Part shown: one piece after another, positions 2,497-43,694 of the stretch | Layout: the number at the start of each line of letters is the position of its first letter | How positions within the stretch are numbered: position 1 is the stretch's first letter | Source: Candidatus Beckwithbacteria bacterium | GTDB taxonomy: Bacteria; Patescibacteriota; Microgenomatia; UBA1400; CG1-02-47-37 | Direction: 5' to 3' | Length of the DNA: 59,023 nucleotides | Assembly: GCA_026397255.1 (NCBI GenBank) | Contig: JAPLVF010000014.1 | Location: forward strand, 1 to 59,023 | The notes under the pieces: model-generated | Seen by the model: the letters and a program-made list of their open reading frames with translations, nothing else | Told to the model about the DNA's origin: nothing | Databases searched by the model: none | Program-made: the position numbers and the translations under genes

Positions 2497-3642
2497 ATGT
2501 TAATCGGTATTGATGCGTCGCGGGCGTTTGGAAAAGACAAAACCGGTACGGAAAATTACTCTAAAGAAATAATTGAGGCGATTTTAAAATTGCCGGAGGC
2601 AAAAAAACATGAATTTATTTTATATGTAAGAAATCCCATAAGGTCCGACCTTGCAGGACTGCAAGGTCGGACCTTGCAGGTAAAAGAAATTAACTGGAAG
2701 ATGTTGTGGACGCAGGGAGGGTTGGCATTAGAGCTTCTTAAAAATCCGGTCGAGGTTTTATGGGTGCCGGCGCATACATTGCCGGTTATCAGAAATCCTA
2801 AAATTAAAACTGTGGTGACGATTCACGGCTTGGAGTATGAGTTTTTACCCCAGTATTATCAGTTTCCCCAGAAATTATGGCTGAATAAGTCAACGGAATA
2901 CGCGGTCAAACAGGCTGACAGATTAATTGCGGTGTCAGCGTGGACAAAAAAACAATTAGCGGCAAGGTTGGGAGCGGATGAGAAAAAAATTACGGTAATT
3001 CACGAAGGGATAAGCCCTAAATTTATTAATAGGCAGTTTAGCGGCGAATATTTAAGACAGATTAGATACAAATACTCTTTGCCGGGAAAATACATTTTGT
3101 TTGTGGGTACAGTCCAGCCGAGGAAGAATTTAGTCAGGTTAATTGAGGCGTTTTCAAAATTAATCACACACCCGGTGTGTGGACATCTTCCACACCGGGT
3201 GTGGAATGGGGATTTGGTCATAGTCGGGAAATTGGGATGGATGTATGAGGAGATTTTGGCGGCACCAAAAAAATATAAAGTGGAAAAAAGAGTGAAATTT
3301 ATCGGCCGGGTGGCCGAAGCGGATTTGGCCGCGGTCTATAAAATGGCCCAAGTGTTTGTCTACCCGAGTTTAATGGAGGGATTTGGTTTGCCGATTTTAG
3401 AGGCTTTGGCTTTAGGCATACCGGTAATTACCTCTGATCGGGGAGCGTTGCCGGAGGTAGCCGGGGAAGGGGCCTTAATCATTAACCCGGAAAAAACAGA
3501 AGAAATTACTCAGGCGATTCGCTTGGTTTTAGAAAACGATGAATTGAGGCAGGGATTGATTGAAAAAGGTTTACGCCAGGTAAAGCAGTTTTCTTGGGAA
3601 AAGGCGGCCCGGGAAACTCTGGAAATTTTAACAGATTGGTGA
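2497..3642 (+). CDS. Glycosyltransferase, GT-B fold (family 4/GT1-like)
   Basis: ATG at 2497 lies 1 nt after the mreB stop; the track start at 2389 overlaps mreB and is rejected. C-terminal YPSLMEGFGLPILEALALGIPVITSD.GALPEV is the typical EX7E region. Confidence 0.85.
   Translation: MLIGIDASRAFGKDKTGTENYSKEIIEAILKLPEAKKHEFILYVRNPIRSDLAGLQGRTLQVKEINWKMLWTQGGLALELLKNPVEVLWVPAHTLPVIRNPKIKTVVTIHGLEYEFLPQYYQFPQKLWLNKSTEYAVKQADRLIAVSAWTKKQLAARLGADEKKITVIHEGISPKFINRQFSGEYLRQIRYKYSLPGKYILFVGTVQPRKNLVRLIEAFSKLITHPVCGHLPHRVWNGDLVIVGKLGWMYEEILAAPKKYKVEKRVKFIGRVAEADLAAVYKMAQVFVYPSLMEGFGLPILEALALGIPVITSDRGALPEVAGEGALIINPEKTEEITQAIRLVLENDELRQGLIEKGLRQVKQFSWEKAARETLEILTDW
2640..2680. repeat. In-frame palindromic element (family B copy 1)
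   Basis: AAGGTCCGACCTTGCAG-GA-CTGCAAGGTCGGACCTT is a perfect 17+17 inverted repeat. It encodes ..IRSDLAGLQGRTLQ.. within the glycosyltransferase. Confidence 0.8.
3167..3217. repeat. In-frame palindromic element (family A copy 2)
   Basis: CACACCCGGTGTGTGGACATC plus the palindrome TTCCACACCGGGTGTGGAA plus TGGGGATTTGG. It encodes THPVCGHLPHRVWNG between the conserved LIEAFSKL and LVIVGK segments. Confidence 0.8.
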
Positions 3643-35793: not shown

Positions 35794-36582
35794 ATGAGCT
35801 TTAAGTCAAGTTCGGCGGAAAAACCGACCGAAAAAGGTTTGCAGTATCATATCCGGTTAAAAGCCGGGGATATTCCGCCTTTTGTGTTGATGCCGGGAGA
35901 TCCGAAACGGGTCGTGAAAATCGCCTCTTTGTGGGATAAAAATCAGTTTGTGGCTGATTACCGGCAGTATGTGACTTACAAAGGTGAGTATCACGGGGTA
36001 AAGTTGGCCTGTGTTTCCAGCGGGATCGGCTCGCCGGCATTGGCGATTGCCTTGGAAGAGTTGGTAAGAATTGGTACTAAGACAGTGATTCGGGTGGGGA
36101 CGTGCGGCAGTTTACAGCCGGAGATGTATCCGGGTGATTTAGTGATTACGACCGGGGCGGTGCGATTGGACGGGGCGTCGAAAGATTATGTGATTCCGGA
36201 ATATCCGGCCGTAGCGGATTATCGGGTGGTGGAAGCTTTAATTAAAGCTTCCAAAAAATTAAAGGTTAAATATCATGTTGGCATTACCGCTTCGACCGAT
36301 ACATTTTATTGTGGGCAGGGGCGGTCGGGATTTAATGATTATTTGCCTAGCCATAAAGAGAATATTTTTAAAGATATGCAAAAAGCGAGAGTGAAAAACT
36401 TTGAGATGGAAGGCGGGTGTTTGTTAACGTTAGCGTCAGTGTTCGGTATCAGCGCGGGCATGGTTTGTGTGGTGGTGGCTGACAGGGTTCATAATCAGTT
36501 TAAAATTACCGATGAAATGGAACAATCGGCAGCCTTAGTGGCCAGTGAAGCAATTAGGCTCTTGCAAATAAAATATAAATAG
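35794..36582 (+). CDS. PNP/UDP-1 family nucleoside phosphorylase (Udp/DeoD-like)
   Basis: MPGDPKRV, RVGTCGSL and NFEMEGG motifs. Confidence 0.8.
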   Translation: MSFKSSSAEKPTEKGLQYHIRLKAGDIPPFVLMPGDPKRVVKIASLWDKNQFVADYRQYVTYKGEYHGVKLACVSSGIGSPALAIALEELVRIGTKTVIRVGTCGSLQPEMYPGDLVITTGAVRLDGASKDYVIPEYPAVADYRVVEALIKASKKLKVKYHVGITASTDTFYCGQGRSGFNDYLPSHKENIFKDMQKARVKNFEMEGGCLLTLASVFGISAGMVCVVVADRVHNQFKITDEMEQSAALVASEAIRLLQIKYK

Positions 36583-36773
36583 TTTAAATAATTAAGTATG
36601 TTTCCTGATAGATTGCCGGAAATTAAAAGAGACAGAATTGATCCTGAATTAAAATCTGATTTACCCGGGACGGTTTCGGGAAGCACAGGGATGTCAGAAG
36701 AGACGGCTCAAGTTTATAAAACAGTAAAAGTTAGTGACGGGAATCTTGGACAAGCAGATAAATTAATTCCCGC

Positions 36774-36802
36774 TTGACAAGAAAAATTAATTTTAGTATT
36801 GT
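36774..36802 (+). promoter_or_regulatory. Sigma70-like promoter TTGACA-17-TATTGT for the pyr operon leader
   Basis: TTGACA at 36774-36779, TATTGT at 36797-36802. Confidence 0.5.
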
Positions 36803-36806
36803 TAAA

Positions 36807-36843
36807 TCCCAGAGCTATGAAACATAATTCTGGGAGTTTTTTT
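36807..36843 (+). terminator. Leader hairpin 1 plus U7 (attenuator candidate)
   Basis: TCCCAGA (36807-36813) pairs with TCTGGGA (29-35), followed by TTTTTTT (36837-36843). Confidence 0.45.
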
Positions 36844-36867
36844 ATCATAAAATTAACAGGAGGTAAC

Positions 36868-36889
36868 CCCGCGAGAGCGGGATTTTTTT
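36868..36889 (+). terminator. Leader hairpin 2 (CCCGC-GAGA-GCGGG) plus U7
   Basis: 5-bp GC stem with a GNRA loop, followed by TTTTTTT (36883-36889). Confidence 0.45.
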
Positions 36890-36907
36890 CCGCCAAAGGC
36901 GGACAAG
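36883..36907 (+). promoter_or_regulatory. 25-nt leader motif TTTTTTTCCGCCAAAGGCGGACAAG (copy 1), ending 1 nt before the start codon
   Basis: 24 of 25 nt identical to 43471-43495. Contains the hairpin CCGCC-AAA-GGCGG. Confidence 0.7.
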
Positions 36908-36908
36908 T

Positions 36909-38351
36909 ATGAAAAAAATAAACTTTAACGACCATTTTGCCAATTTAACCAAGATTAATGCCAGCTTGAATAATGGGGCCAGGGAAAACTATCAAAAAAC
37001 CGGGCTAACTTATGTGGATGTGCCGGAAATTGTGGGTATTACCGGCGCCTGCGAGAATGTGGATACTTTATTTAAGGTCGGTAACCGCTTAGATATTCCT
37101 TTGTTTTTTACCCAAACCGGCCAGCTTTCTTTAGAGCAGGCCTTGCAATCGTTTCACGGGGCTTTTACGGTGATTCATTCCGGCCGGGATGAAGAAGTGG
37201 AAGACGAACGGCATCTAAGACAATTTCGCCTGACGGAAGAAGAGTTTGACTGCACTTTGGCAGGAATGACCAGAAAAAATTACGATGAAGAAAAAATGTT
37301 TGAGGCGCTTTTACAGCATATCCAAAAAGCGATTCAGGGGATGATTAAAGCGGTTCTAAAAGACAATAAAACAATTCTTAAAAAGTTCTATGACCGGGAT
37401 ATTCTCAAGTTGGAGCAGGCCGCCAAAGTTAATTTTTTAAGAATTAATTACGAAGAGGCGGTTAAGCTGTTAAATAAACACGGTTTTAATAAATTAAAGT
37501 TTGGCGATGACTTAAAAGCTGATCACGAACAAATGGTGGTGAAATTACTAAACAAAAAAGGTTCAGAATTGCCGGTGTTTATCATGCGTTATCCCAAAGA
37601 AATTAAGTTTTTCAACATGAAGGTATCGAATAAAGATCCGCGGGTGGTTTTGTCGGCCGATTTAATCCTGCCCCATAGCGGTGAAGCGACCGGTTCGGCA
37701 GTGCGGGAACATGATTTTAATAAACTAAACCAGCGCTTACTGACATCAACGATGTACCGGCTGCATTTACAACGGGGTGGGGTTTATGCAGACTTTGGCT
37801 GGTATTTAAAGATTATTAAAGGTCAGGGGACGAATCCTCATGCCGGTTATGGTATCGGTAATGAACGCGTAATGCAGTATATTTTCGGGGAAAAAGATAT
37901 TAGGAATGTTTCCTTGTTTTCCCAGCTTAATAAGCAGTCACAGGATTGGCACGAAAAGCGCTATGGACAGGCAGCGCTGTACAGTATTGATAAAAAACAG
38001 CTGCTGTTAACGATCGGTAAATTAAGCGACAAAAAGAAACTTTTGCCTTATATTGCCAAATTAAATAAAAATTTTACCCTTTATGCGACCCAAAAAACGC
38101 ATGAATTTTTGAAAACTAAAGGAATTAAAACTGCCATGGTGCATAAAATTTCGGCGATCGGCCAAAAGCCGAACATCGGCGATTTATTAACCCGTCGGGT
38201 GTTTGACTTAGTGATTAATATCCCTCAAGGAAAGTCGGACGAGTTAACTGATGGTAAGCTGATCCGCCGGGCCTCGGCCGAAGCGGGAATATCCTTGATA
38301 ACCGATATGCCAATGGCTAAGCTAGTGTTAGAAAATCTATGCCGACACTAA
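36909..38351 (+). CDS. Class II aaRS-core / AsnA-like ligase (no anticodon-binding domain) fused to a C-terminal MGS-like domain
   Basis: Motif 2-like HLRQFRLTEEEF and motif 3-like HAGYGIGNERVMQYIFG. C-terminal LLLTIGKLSDKKKLL..LYATQKTHEFLKTKGIKTAMVHKI..FDLVINIP..GKLIRRASAEAGISLITD resembles the CarB C-terminal/MGS fold. Confidence 0.65.
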   Translation: MKKINFNDHFANLTKINASLNNGARENYQKTGLTYVDVPEIVGITGACENVDTLFKVGNRLDIPLFFTQTGQLSLEQALQSFHGAFTVIHSGRDEEVEDERHLRQFRLTEEEFDCTLAGMTRKNYDEEKMFEALLQHIQKAIQGMIKAVLKDNKTILKKFYDRDILKLEQAAKVNFLRINYEEAVKLLNKHGFNKLKFGDDLKADHEQMVVKLLNKKGSELPVFIMRYPKEIKFFNMKVSNKDPRVVLSADLILPHSGEATGSAVREHDFNKLNQRLLTSTMYRLHLQRGGVYADFGWYLKIIKGQGTNPHAGYGIGNERVMQYIFGEKDIRNVSLFSQLNKQSQDWHEKRYGQAALYSIDKKQLLLTIGKLSDKKKLLPYIAKLNKNFTLYATQKTHEFLKTKGIKTAMVHKISAIGQKPNIGDLLTRRVFDLVINIPQGKSDELTDGKLIRRASAEAGISLITDMPMAKLVLENLCRH

Positions 38352-39881: not shown

Positions 39882-40618
39882 ACTTTCAGGACAAGCTGGA
39901 CAAAATTGTTGCCAAAAATAATTCACTTCTTTGCGTAGGGTTGGACCAGGGAGAATGGGAGTTTAACCAGAAAATTATTGACCAAACCCATGATTTGGTG
40001 TGTGCTTATAAGCCTAATTTTGCTTTTTACGAAGCGTTGGGAATCAGAGGCTGGGAAAATTTAAAAAAAACAGTGGAATATATAAAAACATTCCACTCCG
40101 GAGTGGTAGTAATTGCTGATGCCAAGCGGGCGGATATCGGTAATACTAACGAGGGATACGTCAAGTCAATTTTTGATGATTTAGGATTTGATGCGGTGAC
40201 GGTTAACCCGTATTTTGGCCGGGAAGCGCTCCAGCCGTTTTTAGACCGAGCGGATAAGGGGATTATCATTTTATGTAAAACTTCTAATCCGGGTAGTGGT
40301 GAATTCCAGGACTTAGTTTGGGAAAAAGTTGCCAGAAATGTGGTCAATGATTGGAATAAAAATAACAACTGTTTGTTAGTGGCGGGGGCGACTTATCCGG
40401 AAGAATTAGCCAAAATCAGAAAAATTGCGGGGGAAATGACGCTATTAGTGCCGGGAATCGGGGAGCAGGGCGGGGATGTCGAAAAGACGGTTAAAGCCGG
40501 ATTAAACCGTCAGAAAGCCGGTATGATTATTAATTCTTCGCGCGGGATAATTTTTAGTGAAAATCCCCGCTTGGAAGCGCAAAAATTAAGAGATAGAATT
40601 AATCAATACCGCCAATGA
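39878..40618 (+). CDS. pyrF: Orotidine-5'-phosphate decarboxylase
   Basis: LCVGLD and IADAKRADIGNT (DxKxxD) motifs. ATGA overlaps at both ends. Confidence 0.85.
   Translation: MNFQDKLDKIVAKNNSLLCVGLDQGEWEFNQKIIDQTHDLVCAYKPNFAFYEALGIRGWENLKKTVEYIKTFHSGVVVIADAKRADIGNTNEGYVKSIFDDLGFDAVTVNPYFGREALQPFLDRADKGIIILCKTSNPGSGEFQDLVWEKVARNVVNDWNKNNNCLLVAGATYPEELAKIRKIAGEMTLLVPGIGEQGGDVEKTVKAGLNRQKAGMIINSSRGIIFSENPRLEAQKLRDRINQYRQ
40082..40116. repeat. 35-nt segment with an 18-nt palindrome core (family C copy 1) inside pyrF
   Basis: ATAAAAACATTCCACTCCGGAGTGGTAGTAATTGC is 33 of 35 nt identical to 42772-42806 in guaB, in the same reading frame (FHSGVVVIA). Confidence 0.85.
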
Positions 40619-41454
40619 AATACAAAATTGTCAGCGCTAAACCAAAAGAAAAACTGGATGTTGCCAAATTAATAAAATATCCGAAAGATTTTCACGGCTC
40701 GACGAAAGTTGATCATTTAGTTAAATTCGGGGATTCGTTTGTCAGTTTAATTGGTAAAAGCGAGGCGGATTTGCCTAAAGATGGAGTGGTGATTTTGGAA
40801 CATGATTTTGACGAAGCCAGAAAATTAATGGATAAGATTAATGAGTTGGCCCAACAGGTAATCAGCGACGCGACTAAATATGACGATGTTGGTTTTTGCC
40901 GGGAATACTTTAATTTGGCTCAAGCTGGTTACAGAATGCTGGATAAATATAAACCGGTGGGAATACCTGTTAGTTTAGAGCGGGCCGGATTAGTAACAAC
41001 CAGACTGGTTTTAGGGGTAGACAGAGATGCGGTGATTGAGAATGAGCAGCGGGTAGTGACTAAGCGAACACATCTTGTTGCCGAGCCGGACACAAATTTG
41101 TCGGTCACGGTTCAGTGGCGGGATATCCCTAAGCTAAAACAAATCTCAAGCCGGGAAATTCTTTTAAGCGATTTTGTTAATCCGGCCTCCGGAGCTTCCG
41201 GGCTGGCTTTTATTGTGGCGGCTCAGGCCAAAGGCCTAGCCGTAGCGAAAATTAACCATCGGTCAATCAGCTGTACCCGGCAAGGATTGATTTTTACCAG
41301 AAAAACATTAGCCGATATGGGGATTAAAAGTAGTTTTACAAGTGTGGGTGAAGCGAACGAATTAAATGAAATGTATTATTTAACCGGCCAGAGGGCGGTC
41401 GCCGATGCCGGGCACTTATTGCGTCACTTCCTACCCAAGTGGTATAAACAGTAG
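40615..41454 (+). CDS. Uracil-phosphoribosyltransferase-like protein with an N-terminal extension of about 90 aa
   Basis: LLSDFVNPASGASG resembles the Upp PRPP-binding loop (DPMLATGGS), and the C-terminal YYLTGQRAV.DAG resembles the uracil-binding region. Sequence is divergent. Confidence 0.55.
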   Translation: MKYKIVSAKPKEKLDVAKLIKYPKDFHGSTKVDHLVKFGDSFVSLIGKSEADLPKDGVVILEHDFDEARKLMDKINELAQQVISDATKYDDVGFCREYFNLAQAGYRMLDKYKPVGIPVSLERAGLVTTRLVLGVDRDAVIENEQRVVTKRTHLVAEPDTNLSVTVQWRDIPKLKQISSREILLSDFVNPASGASGLAFIVAAQAKGLAVAKINHRSISCTRQGLIFTRKTLADMGIKSSFTSVGEANELNEMYYLTGQRAVADAGHLLRHFLPKWYKQ

Positions 41455-42348: not shown

Positions 42349-43422
42349 ATGAACAAAGTCATTAATTTAAATAATCAAAGCGAGTGGTTGACGTTTGACG
42401 ATGTGTTATTGCTGCCGAATTATTCGGAAGTGACGCCTTCAAAAACGGATACAACAACTAAGTTAACAGAAAAAATTAAATTGCCAATTCCGATTTTAGC
42501 CTCACCGATGGACACAGTTTGCGAATCAGCGATGGCCCTCCGTTTAGGTAAAATCGGCGGGTACGGCATTATCCATCGTAACTTATCAATCGAAAAACAA
42601 GTGGGCGAATTAAAATTGGTTTTAAAAGCAGGGGTAAAAGCAGGAGCGGCGGTTGGGGTAGGGGTGGATTTTAAAGATAGAGTGGCGGCTTTAATTAAAG
42701 CCGGGGTGAAGGAGATTTGTGTGGATTCGGCCCACGGCCACACGAAACACGTTATTGAGGCAATTAAAAAGATAAAAATATTCCACTCCGGAGTGGAAGT
42801 AATTGCCGGCAATGTGGCTACTTATGAAGGCGCTGATGATTTATTTAAAGCCGGCGCGGCGGCAGTCAAAGTAGGGATGGGGCCGGGTTCGATCTGCACC
42901 ACCAGAATTATGTCCGGCATGGGAGTGCCGCAGTTGTCAGCGATTGTGGCTGGGGCCAAAGCGGCTAAAAAATATAAAAAAAGCATTATTGCCGACGGCG
43001 GTATCCGTACCAGCGGAGATCTGGTGAAAGCTTTGGCGGCCGGAGCGGCTGCAGTGATGCTGGGTTCTTTATTAGCCGGGACTGACGCGGCGCCGGGGAA
43101 ATTAGTCACTTATCAAGGTAAAAAATATAAAACTTACCGGGGAATGGGTTCGGTTGGAGCGATGAAGCAAGGGAGTGCCGAACGTTATGGTCAGAAAAAA
43201 ACCGATAAAATCCTGGTGGCGGAGGGGGTGGAGGGATTAGTAGAATACAAAGGCAAGCTGGAAGATTTTGTTTACCAGTTAGTCGGCGGGTTAAGATCAG
43301 GTTTAGCCTACCTGGGAGCAAAAAACTTAAAAGAATTGCGGCAAAAGGCCAAGTTCATCCGGATTTCCCGCGCCGGCGTGTATGAATCCCGGCCGCACAG
43401 CATTTTGCTGCTTGACAGGTAA
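42349..43422 (+). CDS. guaB: IMP dehydrogenase lacking the CBS (Bateman) subdomain
   Basis: [33 protein letters not shown] (catalytic Cys), IADGGIR and the IMPDH flap [15 protein letters not shown]...VAEGVEG. Only 357 aa. Confidence 0.85.
42772..42806. repeat. 35-nt segment with the perfect 18-nt palindrome TTCCACTCCGGAGTGGAA (family C copy 2) inside guaB
   Basis: See 40082-40116. Encodes FHSGVEVIA. Confidence 0.85.
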
Positions 43423-43440
43423 AAAATAATCGATTATTTT
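43412..43440 (+). promoter_or_regulatory. Sigma70-like promoter TTGACA-17-TATTTT overlapping the guaB stop
   Basis: TTGACA at 43412-43417, TATTTT at 43435-43440. Confidence 0.45.
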
Positions 43441-43451
43441 GGAAGTAGATT

Positions 43452-43477
43452 AGGGCTAAGGAAGCCCTATTTTTTTT
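43452..43477 (+). terminator. Hairpin AGGGCT-AAGGA-AGCCCT plus U8 (guaB terminator and/or attenuator of the downstream operon)
   Basis: 6-bp stem at 43452-43468, T-run at 43470-43477. Confidence 0.5.
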
Positions 43478-43495
43478 CTGCCAAAGGCGGACAAG
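43471..43495 (+). promoter_or_regulatory. 25-nt leader motif TTTTTTTCTGCCAAAGGCGGACAAG (copy 2)
   Basis: 24 of 25 nt identical to 36883-36907. Followed by GGGCAG, AAAGGAGGT and then ATG 43515. Confidence 0.7.
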
Positions 43496-43514
43496 GGGCA
43501 GAAAGGAGGTAAAA

Positions 43515-43694
43515 ATGGTTAATTCAGAGAGGTTATTACCAGATCCTCCAGTTCCACAAGAAGCAACACCGGCGGAAACACATTCCAGACTAGAGTATTT
43601 GTCGCCAGAAGTACGGGAAAGATTACAAAAGCTCGCTGAAACTAGGGGGGAAGCGGCGGCGGCGGCGGAAACCGTGGGATTGATGGATGCATAG
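43515..43694 (+). CDS. Small ORF (59 aa) with a near-perfect Shine-Dalgarno, first cistron of the PRTase-guaA unit
   Basis: Own translation: MVNSERLLPDPPVPQEATPAETHSRLEYLSPEVRERLQKLAETRGEAAAAAETVGLMDA. AAAGGAGGT lies 5 nt upstream. It is below the track cutoff. Confidence 0.45.
   Translation: MVNSERLLPDPPVPQEATPAETHSRLEYLSPEVRERLQKLAETRGEAAAAAETVGLMDA

Follow-up and report, generated by a model that had tools for sequence, protein, structure and literature searches.

The pyr and gua operons of a Candidatus Beckwithbacteria genome pose a simple question. Why should the leaders of two functionally related operons share a nearly identical stretch of 25 nt? Both operons lie within 59,023 nt of contig JAPLVF010000014.1 (the window, i.e., the whole stretch of DNA analyzed; all leader features and genes described in it are on the forward strand), which belongs to an 895-kb genome in 19 contigs whose nearest public relatives carry the label Candidatus Beckwithbacteria, within Microgenomates/Patescibacteria. 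In our labels, G000 is this genome, the other G-numbers are other genomes, L-numbers are compared loci, and C denotes a contig. The 25-mers at 36883-36907 and 43471-43495 agree at 24 of 25 positions, as a first-pass annotation of this DNA had noticed; it took the likeness for a joint pyr/gua signal and proposed a PyrR-type attenuator or a riboswitch. Each leader consists of a sigma-70-type promoter followed by one or more intrinsic-terminator hairpins, so that both appear to be of the attenuator type, with no common sensor, and to this explanation as a whole we assign a probability of about 0.6. The evidence supports attenuation in the pyr leader, and in the gua leader attenuation is plausible. 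Judged by its distribution, the shared motif is a member of a dispersed mini-hairpin family and not a pyr/gua-specific signal. Start sites, termination, and translation of the upstream open reading frame (uORF) are predicted from sequence in both leaders.

The pyr leader and its relatives

The pyr promoter (TTGACA at 36774-36779, a spacer of 17 nt, and TATTGT at 36797-36802) matches the consensus at 10 of 12 positions. Hairpin 1 (36807-36835; -13.7 kcal/mol, z = -3.9) is followed by U7 at 36837-36843, and hairpin 2, hereafter terminator 2 (CCCGCGAGAGCGGG, 36868-36881; -10.6 kcal/mol), is followed by a second U7 at 36883-36889. The 18-mer CCGCCAAAGGCGGACAAG (36890-36907; -9.6 kcal/mol), a mini-hairpin of the form CCGCC-AAA-GGCGG with an ACAAG tail, comes next and ends 1 nt upstream of the main ATG at 36909. 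Promoters and terminators were cross-checked by an independent consensus scan, which recovered terminator 2 at 36868-36881. When an intrinsic terminator is defined as a GC-rich stem-loop with a U-run of at least 5, the definition covers hairpin 1 with its T7, terminator 2 with its T7, and the gua hairpin at 43451-43469 with its T8. The 5' arm of hairpin 1, UCCCAGAG, lies 5 to 12 nt past the -10 box, and the loop contains the ATG (36817) of a 31-codon uORF, MKHNSGSFFIIKLTGGNPARAGFFSAKGGQV (36817-36912). This frame spans both hairpins and the 18-mer, decodes the U-runs as Phe-Phe, and ends in a TGA that overlaps the main ATG (GUAUGA); a frame of equal length arose in just 3.5% of shuffles. The first-pass annotation had listed the same promoter, the same two hairpins with their U7 tracts, the motif 1 nt before the ATG, and the same open frame, and all of these are confirmed here.

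How old is this arrangement? Homologues of the first pyr gene, which encodes an aminoacyl-tRNA synthetase (aaRS)-like/MGS fusion, were taken from 80 genomes, and 55 pyr leaders, that of the window included, were inspected over up to 260 nt upstream of the ATG. About 38 of the 55 carry at least one hairpin with a T-run. One architecture is common to 11 leaders (the window, L012, L013, L014, L020, L023, L027, L029, L030, L043, and L060), which are labeled Beckwith-, Levy-, and Amesbacteria and others and thus come from several candidate phyla of Microgenomates: TTGACA, 17 or 18 nt, and TAnnnT; hairpin 1 with U6 to U8; a short open reading frame (ORF); terminator 2 with U7 to U9; and the gene. 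A comparison of homologous leaders had been suggested by the first-pass annotation as a check on attenuation, and it revealed compensatory changes in the hairpin 1 stem (UCCCAGA/UCUGGGA, CCAGAGC/GCUCUGG, UCUCAGA/UCUGAGA, UCAGG/CCUGA, and UCCAGG/CCUGGA). Every compared leader has a Shine-Dalgarno-like purine run in the 5' arm of hairpin 1, namely, AGAG, AGAAG, or, in L043 and L060, AGGAG. The register of hairpin 1 relative to the -10 box is fixed in 10 of the 11 leaders, with the 5' arm within the start window.

All 11 leaders have a short ORF that extends up to or past the second terminator, which strengthens the earlier idea of a uORF. In seven of them, hairpin 1 carries the start codon (ATG) in its loop; the frame decodes the 3' arm and U-run as Phe-Phe or Phe-Leu and continues up to or past terminator 2. 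In the other four, a Shine-Dalgarno-preceded ATG directly follows U-run 1, and the stop lies at or a few nucleotides from terminator 2. Compared with mononucleotide shuffles, the lengths of these uORFs give a combined p of ~0.01, which is suggestive only, the leaders being related to one another. Terminator 2 is almost unchanged in L013 and L014. The 18-mer is absent from all 10 related pyr leaders compared, and the closest of them, L012 to L014 (71 to 80% protein identity), have an AAGGAGG Shine-Dalgarno sequence at its position. In the window, the 18-mer stands in place of this ancestral sequence and offers AAGGCGG 6 nt before the ATG.

The closest known parallels are enterobacterial. In pyrBI and pyrE, a ribosome that translates the leader ORF through a rho-independent terminator keeps the terminator hairpin from forming, and a low UTP level slows the polymerase at U-tracts and lets the ribosome keep up. 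Turnbough and Switzer are said to have described this UTP-sensitive transcription-translation coupling for pyrBI and pyrE of E. coli and Salmonella in 2008. The pyr leader resembles such a system and would be an old, conserved leader-peptide attenuator. As in pyrBI, a promoter is followed by a hairpin with a U-rich tract and then by a rho-independent terminator just upstream of the first pyr gene; a short leader ORF runs through the terminator, the U-runs are Phe codons, and genes of pyrimidine synthesis lie downstream. A leader ORF upstream of and reaching the attenuator hairpin and a U-rich pause region upstream of the attenuator (hairpin 1 with U6 to U8) were each found in 11 of 11 leaders. 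Unlike pyrBI, the leader has two full terminator-like units in tandem, places the leader ATG in the loop of hairpin 1 and a Shine-Dalgarno-like sequence in its 5' arm, and is only ~100 nt long. The host is a member of the candidate phyla radiation (CPR), and the first gene is the aaRS-like/MGS fusion and not pyrB.

A second parallel concerns the transcription start. In pyrC and pyrD, a high CTP/GTP ratio leads to a start at C 6 to 7 nt past the -10 box, and the extra C residues permit a 5' hairpin that hides the ribosome-binding site, whereas a low CTP/GTP ratio shifts the start to a G further downstream (PMC6524683). The leaders described here likewise have C residues 6 to 8 nt past the -10 box and then a purine: (T)CCC at positions 5 to 8 followed by A9 and G10 occurs in seven leaders, and the same pattern shifted by 1 nt occurs in three more. 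According to our computations, the extra 5' C residues are also needed for a stable 5' hairpin over the Shine-Dalgarno-like sequence. Hairpin 1 has a computed energy of -9 to -12 kcal/mol for starts at C6/C7 and of -1.4 to -5.5 kcal/mol for starts at A9/G10, and in the window its stability drops to -2.5/-1.4 kcal/mol for A9/G10 compared to C6/C7. Alternative start nucleotides, C and then a purine, are thus present, and a stable 5' hairpin is found, by computation only, in just the longer, C-started transcript. Unlike pyrC/pyrD, a U-run follows the hairpin, and the predicted output is termination as well as ribosome access to the leader ORF.

How might such a leader work? The input would be a pyrimidine-sensitive choice of start site of the pyrC/pyrD type together with UTP-sensitive pausing at the U-runs. 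With plentiful pyrimidines, a start at C would let hairpin 1 form, the transcript would stop at U-run 1 with the Shine-Dalgarno sequence of the uORF buried, and leftover read-through would be stopped at terminator 2. With scarce pyrimidines, a purine start would leave hairpin 1 weak, so that the uORF would be translated and both terminators overridden. Because the uORF runs to or through terminator 2, a translating ribosome would, by analogy with pyrBI, block the formation of both hairpins. As stated in a passage of PMC4824070, terminators a few bases past a translated ORF are almost fully suppressed. Translation of the first pyr gene is probably coupled to the uORF, since the uORF crosses the 18-mer and stops on the main ATG and the first gene has no canonical Shine-Dalgarno sequence.

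A similar layout was observed at three further G000 genes (C17:216136, C17:292935, and C19:35003), where a promoter is followed by a 5' hairpin 1 to 4 nt past the predicted start, U6, and the ATG, with no separate Shine-Dalgarno sequence; one of the three hairpins has GGAGGA in its 3' arm. These cases point to promoter, 5' hairpin, U6, and ATG as a recurrent design of 5' untranslated regions in this organism.

The gua leader and the operon genes

The gua promoter (TTGACA, followed by GG, at 43412-43417, a 17-nt spacer, and TATTTT at 43435-43440; 10 of 12 consensus matches) overlaps the 3' end of guaB. The terminator UAGGGCUAAGGAAGCCCUA (UAGGGCU-AAGGA-AGCCCUA, 43451-43469), found by folding and by the consensus scan, is followed by U8 at 43470-43477 and then by the gua copy of the mini-hairpin, CTGCCAAAGGCGGACAAG (CUGCC-AAA-GGCGG with ACAAG, 43478-43495), which has a U-G wobble in its stem. 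The CUGCC arm has an alternative partner, GGCAG, at 43498-43502. The ribosome-binding site GGAGG (43505-43509) precedes the ATG at 43515 of a 59-codon ORF (43515-43694) with a strong Shine-Dalgarno sequence, which heads the phosphoribosyltransferase-guaA unit. This succession of promoter, hairpin with U8, motif, Shine-Dalgarno sequence, and small-ORF ATG is as first annotated. Small ORFs with a PPET(Q/H) motif occupy the same place in G003, G006, and G007, and most share an AAxARGxLIE-like C terminus; since its positional counterparts share these motifs, the 59-codon ORF probably encodes a real small protein.

Six genomes of the same family keep TTGACAGG, 17 nt, TATTTT, UUAGGGCU, a variable loop, GGCCCUA, and a U-run. 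The promoter is conserved in five genera, even where prs instead of guaB lies upstream and a TGA stop falls inside TTGACA, and in the six family members the sequence of the terminator stem is constant and its loop variable. The comparison thus indicates that the promoter is real, because it is kept whatever the upstream gene, and that the hairpin is an RNA element, because its loop varies in length. The hairpin also doubles as the terminator of the upstream operon. The gua leader has no uORF and its hairpin lies just past the start window; therefore, the mechanism proposed for the pyr leader does not apply here.

What does the mini-hairpin do at this site? In G004, no insert separates the gua U-run from the conserved Shine-Dalgarno sequence GGGCAGAAAGGA, and the 18-mer of the window is an exact 18-nt insertion at this point. 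At the same site, G007 has UGGCAAAACGCCA and G003 has UGGACAAAUUCCA, other hairpins of 12 nt that covary with each other (UGGC/GCCA versus UGGA/UCCA). In the minimum-free-energy fold of the window (-13.6 kcal/mol), the U-run and CUGCC pair with GGCAGAAAGGAGG, the Shine-Dalgarno sequence included. Because the CUGCC/GGCGG mini-hairpin is transcribed first, a small hairpin at the gua site may, on this model, keep the U-run from sequestering the ribosome-binding site.

By Pfam and NCBIfam, the pyr unit encodes, in order, the aaRS-like/MGS fusion (36909-38351; a class II aaRS-like/AsnA-like domain fused to an MGS-like domain), PyrD, PyrE, PyrF, a 279-amino-acid protein, Prs, and GuaB, and the gua unit encodes the small ORF, an XPRT-like phosphoribosyltransferase, and GuaA. 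The 279-amino-acid protein (40615-41454) has no family match and no sequence relative in PDB, and its single-sequence structure model has a pLDDT (predicted local distance difference test) of 37 and is unusable. The fusion gene at the head of pyrD-pyrE-pyrF is widespread in Patescibacteria (36909-38351 and homologues L011 to L090), with relatives of ~40% identity in DPANN and other archaea, and many of its homologues align over the first ~350 residues only, upstream of the MGS-like domain.

A dispersed mini-hairpin family

If the leaders have no common sensor, where does their shared sequence come from? Allowing up to 3 mismatches, the 18-mer occurs twice in the window versus 0.05 times expected, and 0 of 100 shuffles contained two or more. 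A third copy in the genome, CAGCCAAAGGCTGACAAG, lies at C15:67295-67312 between a TATAAAT box and mature tRNA-Leu(CAG), 2 nt from the latter, and its stem is preserved by a compensatory change from C-G to A-U. The orthologous tRNA-Leu site in G003 has no hairpin, TATAAATCAA directly joining the tRNA; in G006, it has the hairpin UCAGCCAAAGGCUGA with a different tail. At that site in G003 (C67, L251), just 3 nt separate the -10-like TATAAAT from the mature 5' end of tRNA-Leu(CAG), so that this tRNA may be transcribed almost leaderless. The closest relatives, G456 and G459, carry CCGCCAAAGGCGGACAGG elsewhere, one copy overlapping the tRNA 3' end CCGCCA. Within the genome, the 9-mer GCCAAAGGC was no more overrepresented than nonhairpin controls. 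Matches in L006 and L007, and those to CGGCCAAAGGCCGACACG, fall within coding sequence (a glycosyltransferase and NrdJ) and were discounted on that ground or as chance.

The 13-nt core CCGCCAAAGGCGG is present in ~348 copies in 128 of 401 Patescibacteria genomes, with up to 15 copies per genome, compared to ~20 copies of a reversed control. Its stem usually extends into the flanks, and it is often found in tandem with other GC-rich mini-hairpins such as CCGCCUCUGGCGG; the flank consensus is (A)(A)U before the core, and an ACAAG tail follows ~2% of the copies only. The 13-mer copies show no strand bias relative to neighboring genes. The full 18-mer occurs in only four other, scattered genomes among 400 from Patescibacteria; its sites there are a duplicated 5S fragment in a 23S-5S spacer, a position 19 nt upstream of a tRNA, another 3 nt upstream of the ATG of atpD, and the beginning of a 130-nt repeat. 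It is also present in at least 120 metagenome contigs of widely differing GC content, where 61 of 88 copies (~70%) lie outside long ORFs, many are at the tip of a longer hairpin, the sense strand is favored ~30 to 14 (~2:1), and no common neighboring gene was found.

Several more specific identities were considered and rejected. A link of the 18-mer to T-runs or terminators is weak among the metagenome copies. A phage motif or phage-polymerase promoter finds little agreement in viral sequences, where only 1 of 80 IMG/VR matches to a 14-mer has the CAAG tail and ACAAG is not enriched in viral contigs. The GGCGG of the motif resembles ops, but an RfaH/LoaP-type antiterminator was rejected because every genome tested has exactly one NusG. 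When 28 motif-bearing loci, both leaders, and the window were compared with Rfam, only tRNA, rRNA, and a group I intron were returned and the motif had no match. A literature search on the sequence gave just an unrelated paper on a human RNA, and one on hairpin repeats of Patescibacteria gave just TIGR-Tas papers.

The phylum-wide dispersal and the absence at orthologous sites together indicate that the 18-mer is not a common regulatory signal. The joint signal first proposed does not hold: the motif is missing from orthologous pyr leaders, is replaced by other hairpins or nothing in gua leaders, also stands before tRNA-Leu, and belongs to a phylum-wide family. Most likely, C(C/U)GCCAAAGGCGGACAAG would be a lineage-specific insertion of a GC-rich mini-hairpin and at most a generic RNA structural module, e.g., a leader hairpin between a terminator U-run and a ribosome-binding site; in the pyr leader, the inserted 18-mer would have taken over the place of the Shine-Dalgarno sequence. 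As far as the comparison of leaders goes, the likeness of the 25-mers is that of a dispersed hairpin abutting preexisting U-runs in two cases. The first-pass annotation had named a dispersed repeat, found mostly away from 5' untranslated regions, as the outcome that would undo its proposal. The distribution comes near to this, yet the full 18-mer leans ~2:1 toward the strand of the neighboring gene in metagenome contigs.

The genome harbors mobile elements that could be considered as a source. Six RayT/IS200-like Y1 (HUH) genes with HFH and YIHxNP motifs were identified in its 0.9 Mb (C18:19458, C16:35273, C15:24806, C13:13743, C17:170126, and C15:37978), each flanked by its own distinct palindrome and none by the CCGCC hairpin; the 18-mer was accordingly rejected as the repetitive extragenic palindrome (REP) of one of these six genes. 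Two REP families of eight dispersed copies each, ACATTCCACTCCGGAGTGGAATGT and ATCACACACCGGGTGTGTGAT, flank their own RayT genes, and one copy of ATCACACACCGGGTGTGTGAT lies near position 3163 of the window. The palindrome of the first family, (A)TTCCACTCCGGAGTGGAA, is found in frame in pyrF (40093-40106) and guaB (42783-42796), within a 35-nt segment common to both genes (40082-40116 and 42772-42806). Since the same palindrome stands on both sides of a RayT-like Y1 gene (G000 C15:37737 and 38440) and has eight copies, a REP-like element appears to have been inserted in frame into two enzymes. Y1 genes are commoner in hairpin-rich genomes (12 of 12 versus 5 of 12) but do not adjoin the hairpins; those of G248 and G264 are kilobases from the hairpins there.

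REP and REPIN sequences and their RAYT (TnpA-REP) transposases were reportedly described by Nunvar in 2010, Bertels and Rainey in 2011, and Ton-Hoang in 2012. Like these elements, and like the GC-rich palindromic clusters of AT-rich genomes, the hairpin family is a short, GC-rich, dispersed, and mostly extragenic palindrome with many copies in some lineages; as in REP/REPIN, copies are often in tandem with other hairpins, and RayT-like genes flanked by bona fide REPs are present in this genome. Unlike REP/REPIN, the hairpin is only 13 to 18 nt long, keeps one core sequence across the whole phylum and beyond, has only three to four copies in its own genome, and has some copies associated with tRNA-nested GIY-YIG nuclease genes. 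No GTAG/CGTC-type head lies beside the hairpin, and no RAYT gene is flanked by copies of it among the six of this genome or in G248 and G264, so that membership in the REP/RAYT system is not supported.

The GIY-YIG genes deserve a closer look. At 4 of 31 sampled loci, genes for ~80-amino-acid GIY-YIG nucleases in tRNA clusters lie within ~60 nt of a 13-mer. In L115, the 5' part of the tRNA-Leu downstream of the nuclease gene is duplicated, with the 18-mer breaking up the duplicated fragment, and in G170 (L229) it interrupts a partial 5S duplicate in the 23S-5S spacer. Two such genes of the genome itself are preceded by CGGAC-AAR-GUCCG with CCAAG. This link between nuclease and hairpin is a lead, not a result. 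Genes of this size class between tRNA genes were seen in G000 at C15:64331-64686, C15:71628-71909, and C7:4981-6298, where the individual nuclease genes have positions C7:4981, C7:6044, C15:64414, and C15:71628, and in L115, L378, L384, L385, and L389, and at G000 C15:64414 and in L115 a duplicated 5' fragment of the following tRNA and a hairpin precede the nuclease gene; by their arrangement, they look like tRNA-targeting mobile cassettes. Two further elements were noted in passing, a group I intron-like insert in the 23S rRNA of G170 (L229, 1-1700; 46 bits in Rfam, just under threshold) and a four-copy repeat containing CGTGCTCACGCGTGCCCGAAGGGCAACATGATTGCGCGCG at G000 C7:44851, C8:1161, C19:34841, and C19:49150.

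Alternative explanations and implications

Could the leaders be something other than attenuators driven by start-site choice and translation? A PyrR-type protein-mediated attenuator or a riboswitch, as first suggested, is largely refuted and extremely improbable. It drew on the resemblance of the UCCCAGAG of hairpin 1 to the AAUCCCAGAG loop recognized by PyrR and on the proteins with a phosphoribosyltransferase fold encoded in both operons, to which the 279-amino-acid protein without family assignment may be added, and Bacillus PyrR attenuators (RF00515) do share a terminator in the pyr leader and a UCC(C)AGAG-like purine-rich hairpin. Unlike them, this system has no PyrR, no covariance-model match, and no antiterminator/anti-antiterminator arrangement. 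Rfam returned only tRNAs for the whole window at the gathering threshold, cmscan of 36500-37000 gave no PyrR match at E values up to 10, and up to that E value neither leader matches a PyrR site or a riboswitch. The best hit to the PyrR profile NF003549 over the whole genome scores 18.4 bits versus a cutoff of 138, i.e., the genome has no PyrR homologue, and the phosphoribosyltransferases of the operons are assigned as PyrE-type and XPRT-like. Both leaders fold into simple hairpins only, and an aptamer would not fit into the three of the pyr leader. The purine run is better read as the Shine-Dalgarno-like 5' arm of the uORF hairpin, with AGGAG in L043 and L060. It is also very unlikely that the hairpins only terminate the upstream units (udp and pyr-prs-guaB), with promoter boxes that are nonfunctional or start transcripts past the hairpins, and hence no attenuation. 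The gua hairpin lies directly past the guaB stop, an overlap of terminator and promoter is expected in a compact genome, and a start at A9/G10 would leave pyr-promoter transcripts without hairpin 1. Yet the promoter boxes are kept whatever the upstream gene and frame, the register of hairpin 1 to the -10 box is fixed in 10 of 11 leaders, and a second terminator and a uORF follow, which a gene-end terminator would not need.

Other observations weigh against attenuator-type leaders without a common signal. The arrangement of promoter, 5' hairpin, U6, and ATG is also found at other genes of the genome, so that such hairpins may be a general design of 5' untranslated regions, or terminators of upstream genes, instead of regulated attenuators. 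Statistically, the uORF result is modest (p ~0.01), and the leaders are nonindependent. The three copies of the 18-mer in the genome keep AAA and ACAAG exactly and retain the stem by compensatory changes, and the ACAAG tail is ~20-fold enriched among 13-mer copies (8 of 348), which together leave room for a sequence-specific partner. The 18-mer might be a sequence-specific RNA signal, such as a binding or cleavage site of a trans-acting protein or RNase, through which the mRNAs of both operons and the precursor of tRNA-Leu are coordinated, e.g., by 5' processing that leaves a protective hairpin or as part of growth-rate control. We consider this unlikely. All three copies are on the sense strand and precede a functional RNA by 1 to 20 nt, the stem is maintained by a U-G wobble and by one compensatory A-U pair, the 18-mers of other genomes precede a tRNA, 5S rRNA, and the atpD ATG, and the metagenome copies have their sense bias; against this, sister genera do not conserve the sequence at their orthologous pyr, gua, or tRNA-Leu sites, the closest relatives have it elsewhere, metagenome copies have no common neighboring gene, the generic 13-mer lacks strand bias, and a search for a specialized NusG paralogue came out empty, with no other candidate partner identified. 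Quite unlikely, too, is a purely selfish DNA hairpin, either a palindrome of the REP kind or one end of a GIY-YIG cassette that targets tRNA genes, with leader copies that are neutral footprints and play no part in expression. Its sporadic, multicopy distribution across the phylum, the six RayT-like Y1 genes, the two clear REP families (of which one has in-frame copies in pyrF and guaB), the nuclease genes near 13-mers at 4 of 31 loci, the duplicated tRNA-Leu fragment of L115, and the 18-mer in the duplicated 5S fragment of G170 agree with such an origin. However, the CCGCC hairpin flanks none of the RayT genes, the three sites of this genome show no target-site duplication, and the only Shine-Dalgarno-like sequence in the pyr leader comes from the hairpin. 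The 15-nt hairpin before tRNA-Leu is identical in G000 and G006 although the flanks differ, which suggests constraint. A further reading is likewise unlikely: CCGCC-AAA-GGCGG(+ACAAG) might be the recognition or end structure of an undescribed mobile unit with ~80-amino-acid GIY-YIG nucleases. Such a unit would target genes for tRNA and rRNA, in Patescibacteria as well as in other phyla, duplicate the 5' part of its target on insertion, and shed solo hairpins that the host would co-opt as 5'-leader modules (pyr ribosome-binding site, gua leader, and tRNA-Leu leader).

The preferred explanation, attenuator-type leaders with a dispersed hairpin in both, has consequences for comparative work and for the biology of these bacteria. 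A striking motif in two functionally related leaders can be a dispersed mini-hairpin and not a regulon signal. The excess of the 13-nt hairpin, the links to tRNA-nested GIY-YIG genes, and the in-frame REPs in pyrF and guaB indicate active selfish-DNA dynamics in genomes of ~0.9 Mb. Both the conserved pyr attenuator of the CPR and the hairpin dispersed across the phylum are variations on known kinds of system. The pyr leader would unite two enterobacterial principles, the leader-peptide attenuator and start-site switching, in ~100 nt, and, in the CPR/Patescibacteria, where gene regulation is almost unstudied, it would be a conserved and testable case of regulator-free nucleotide sensing.

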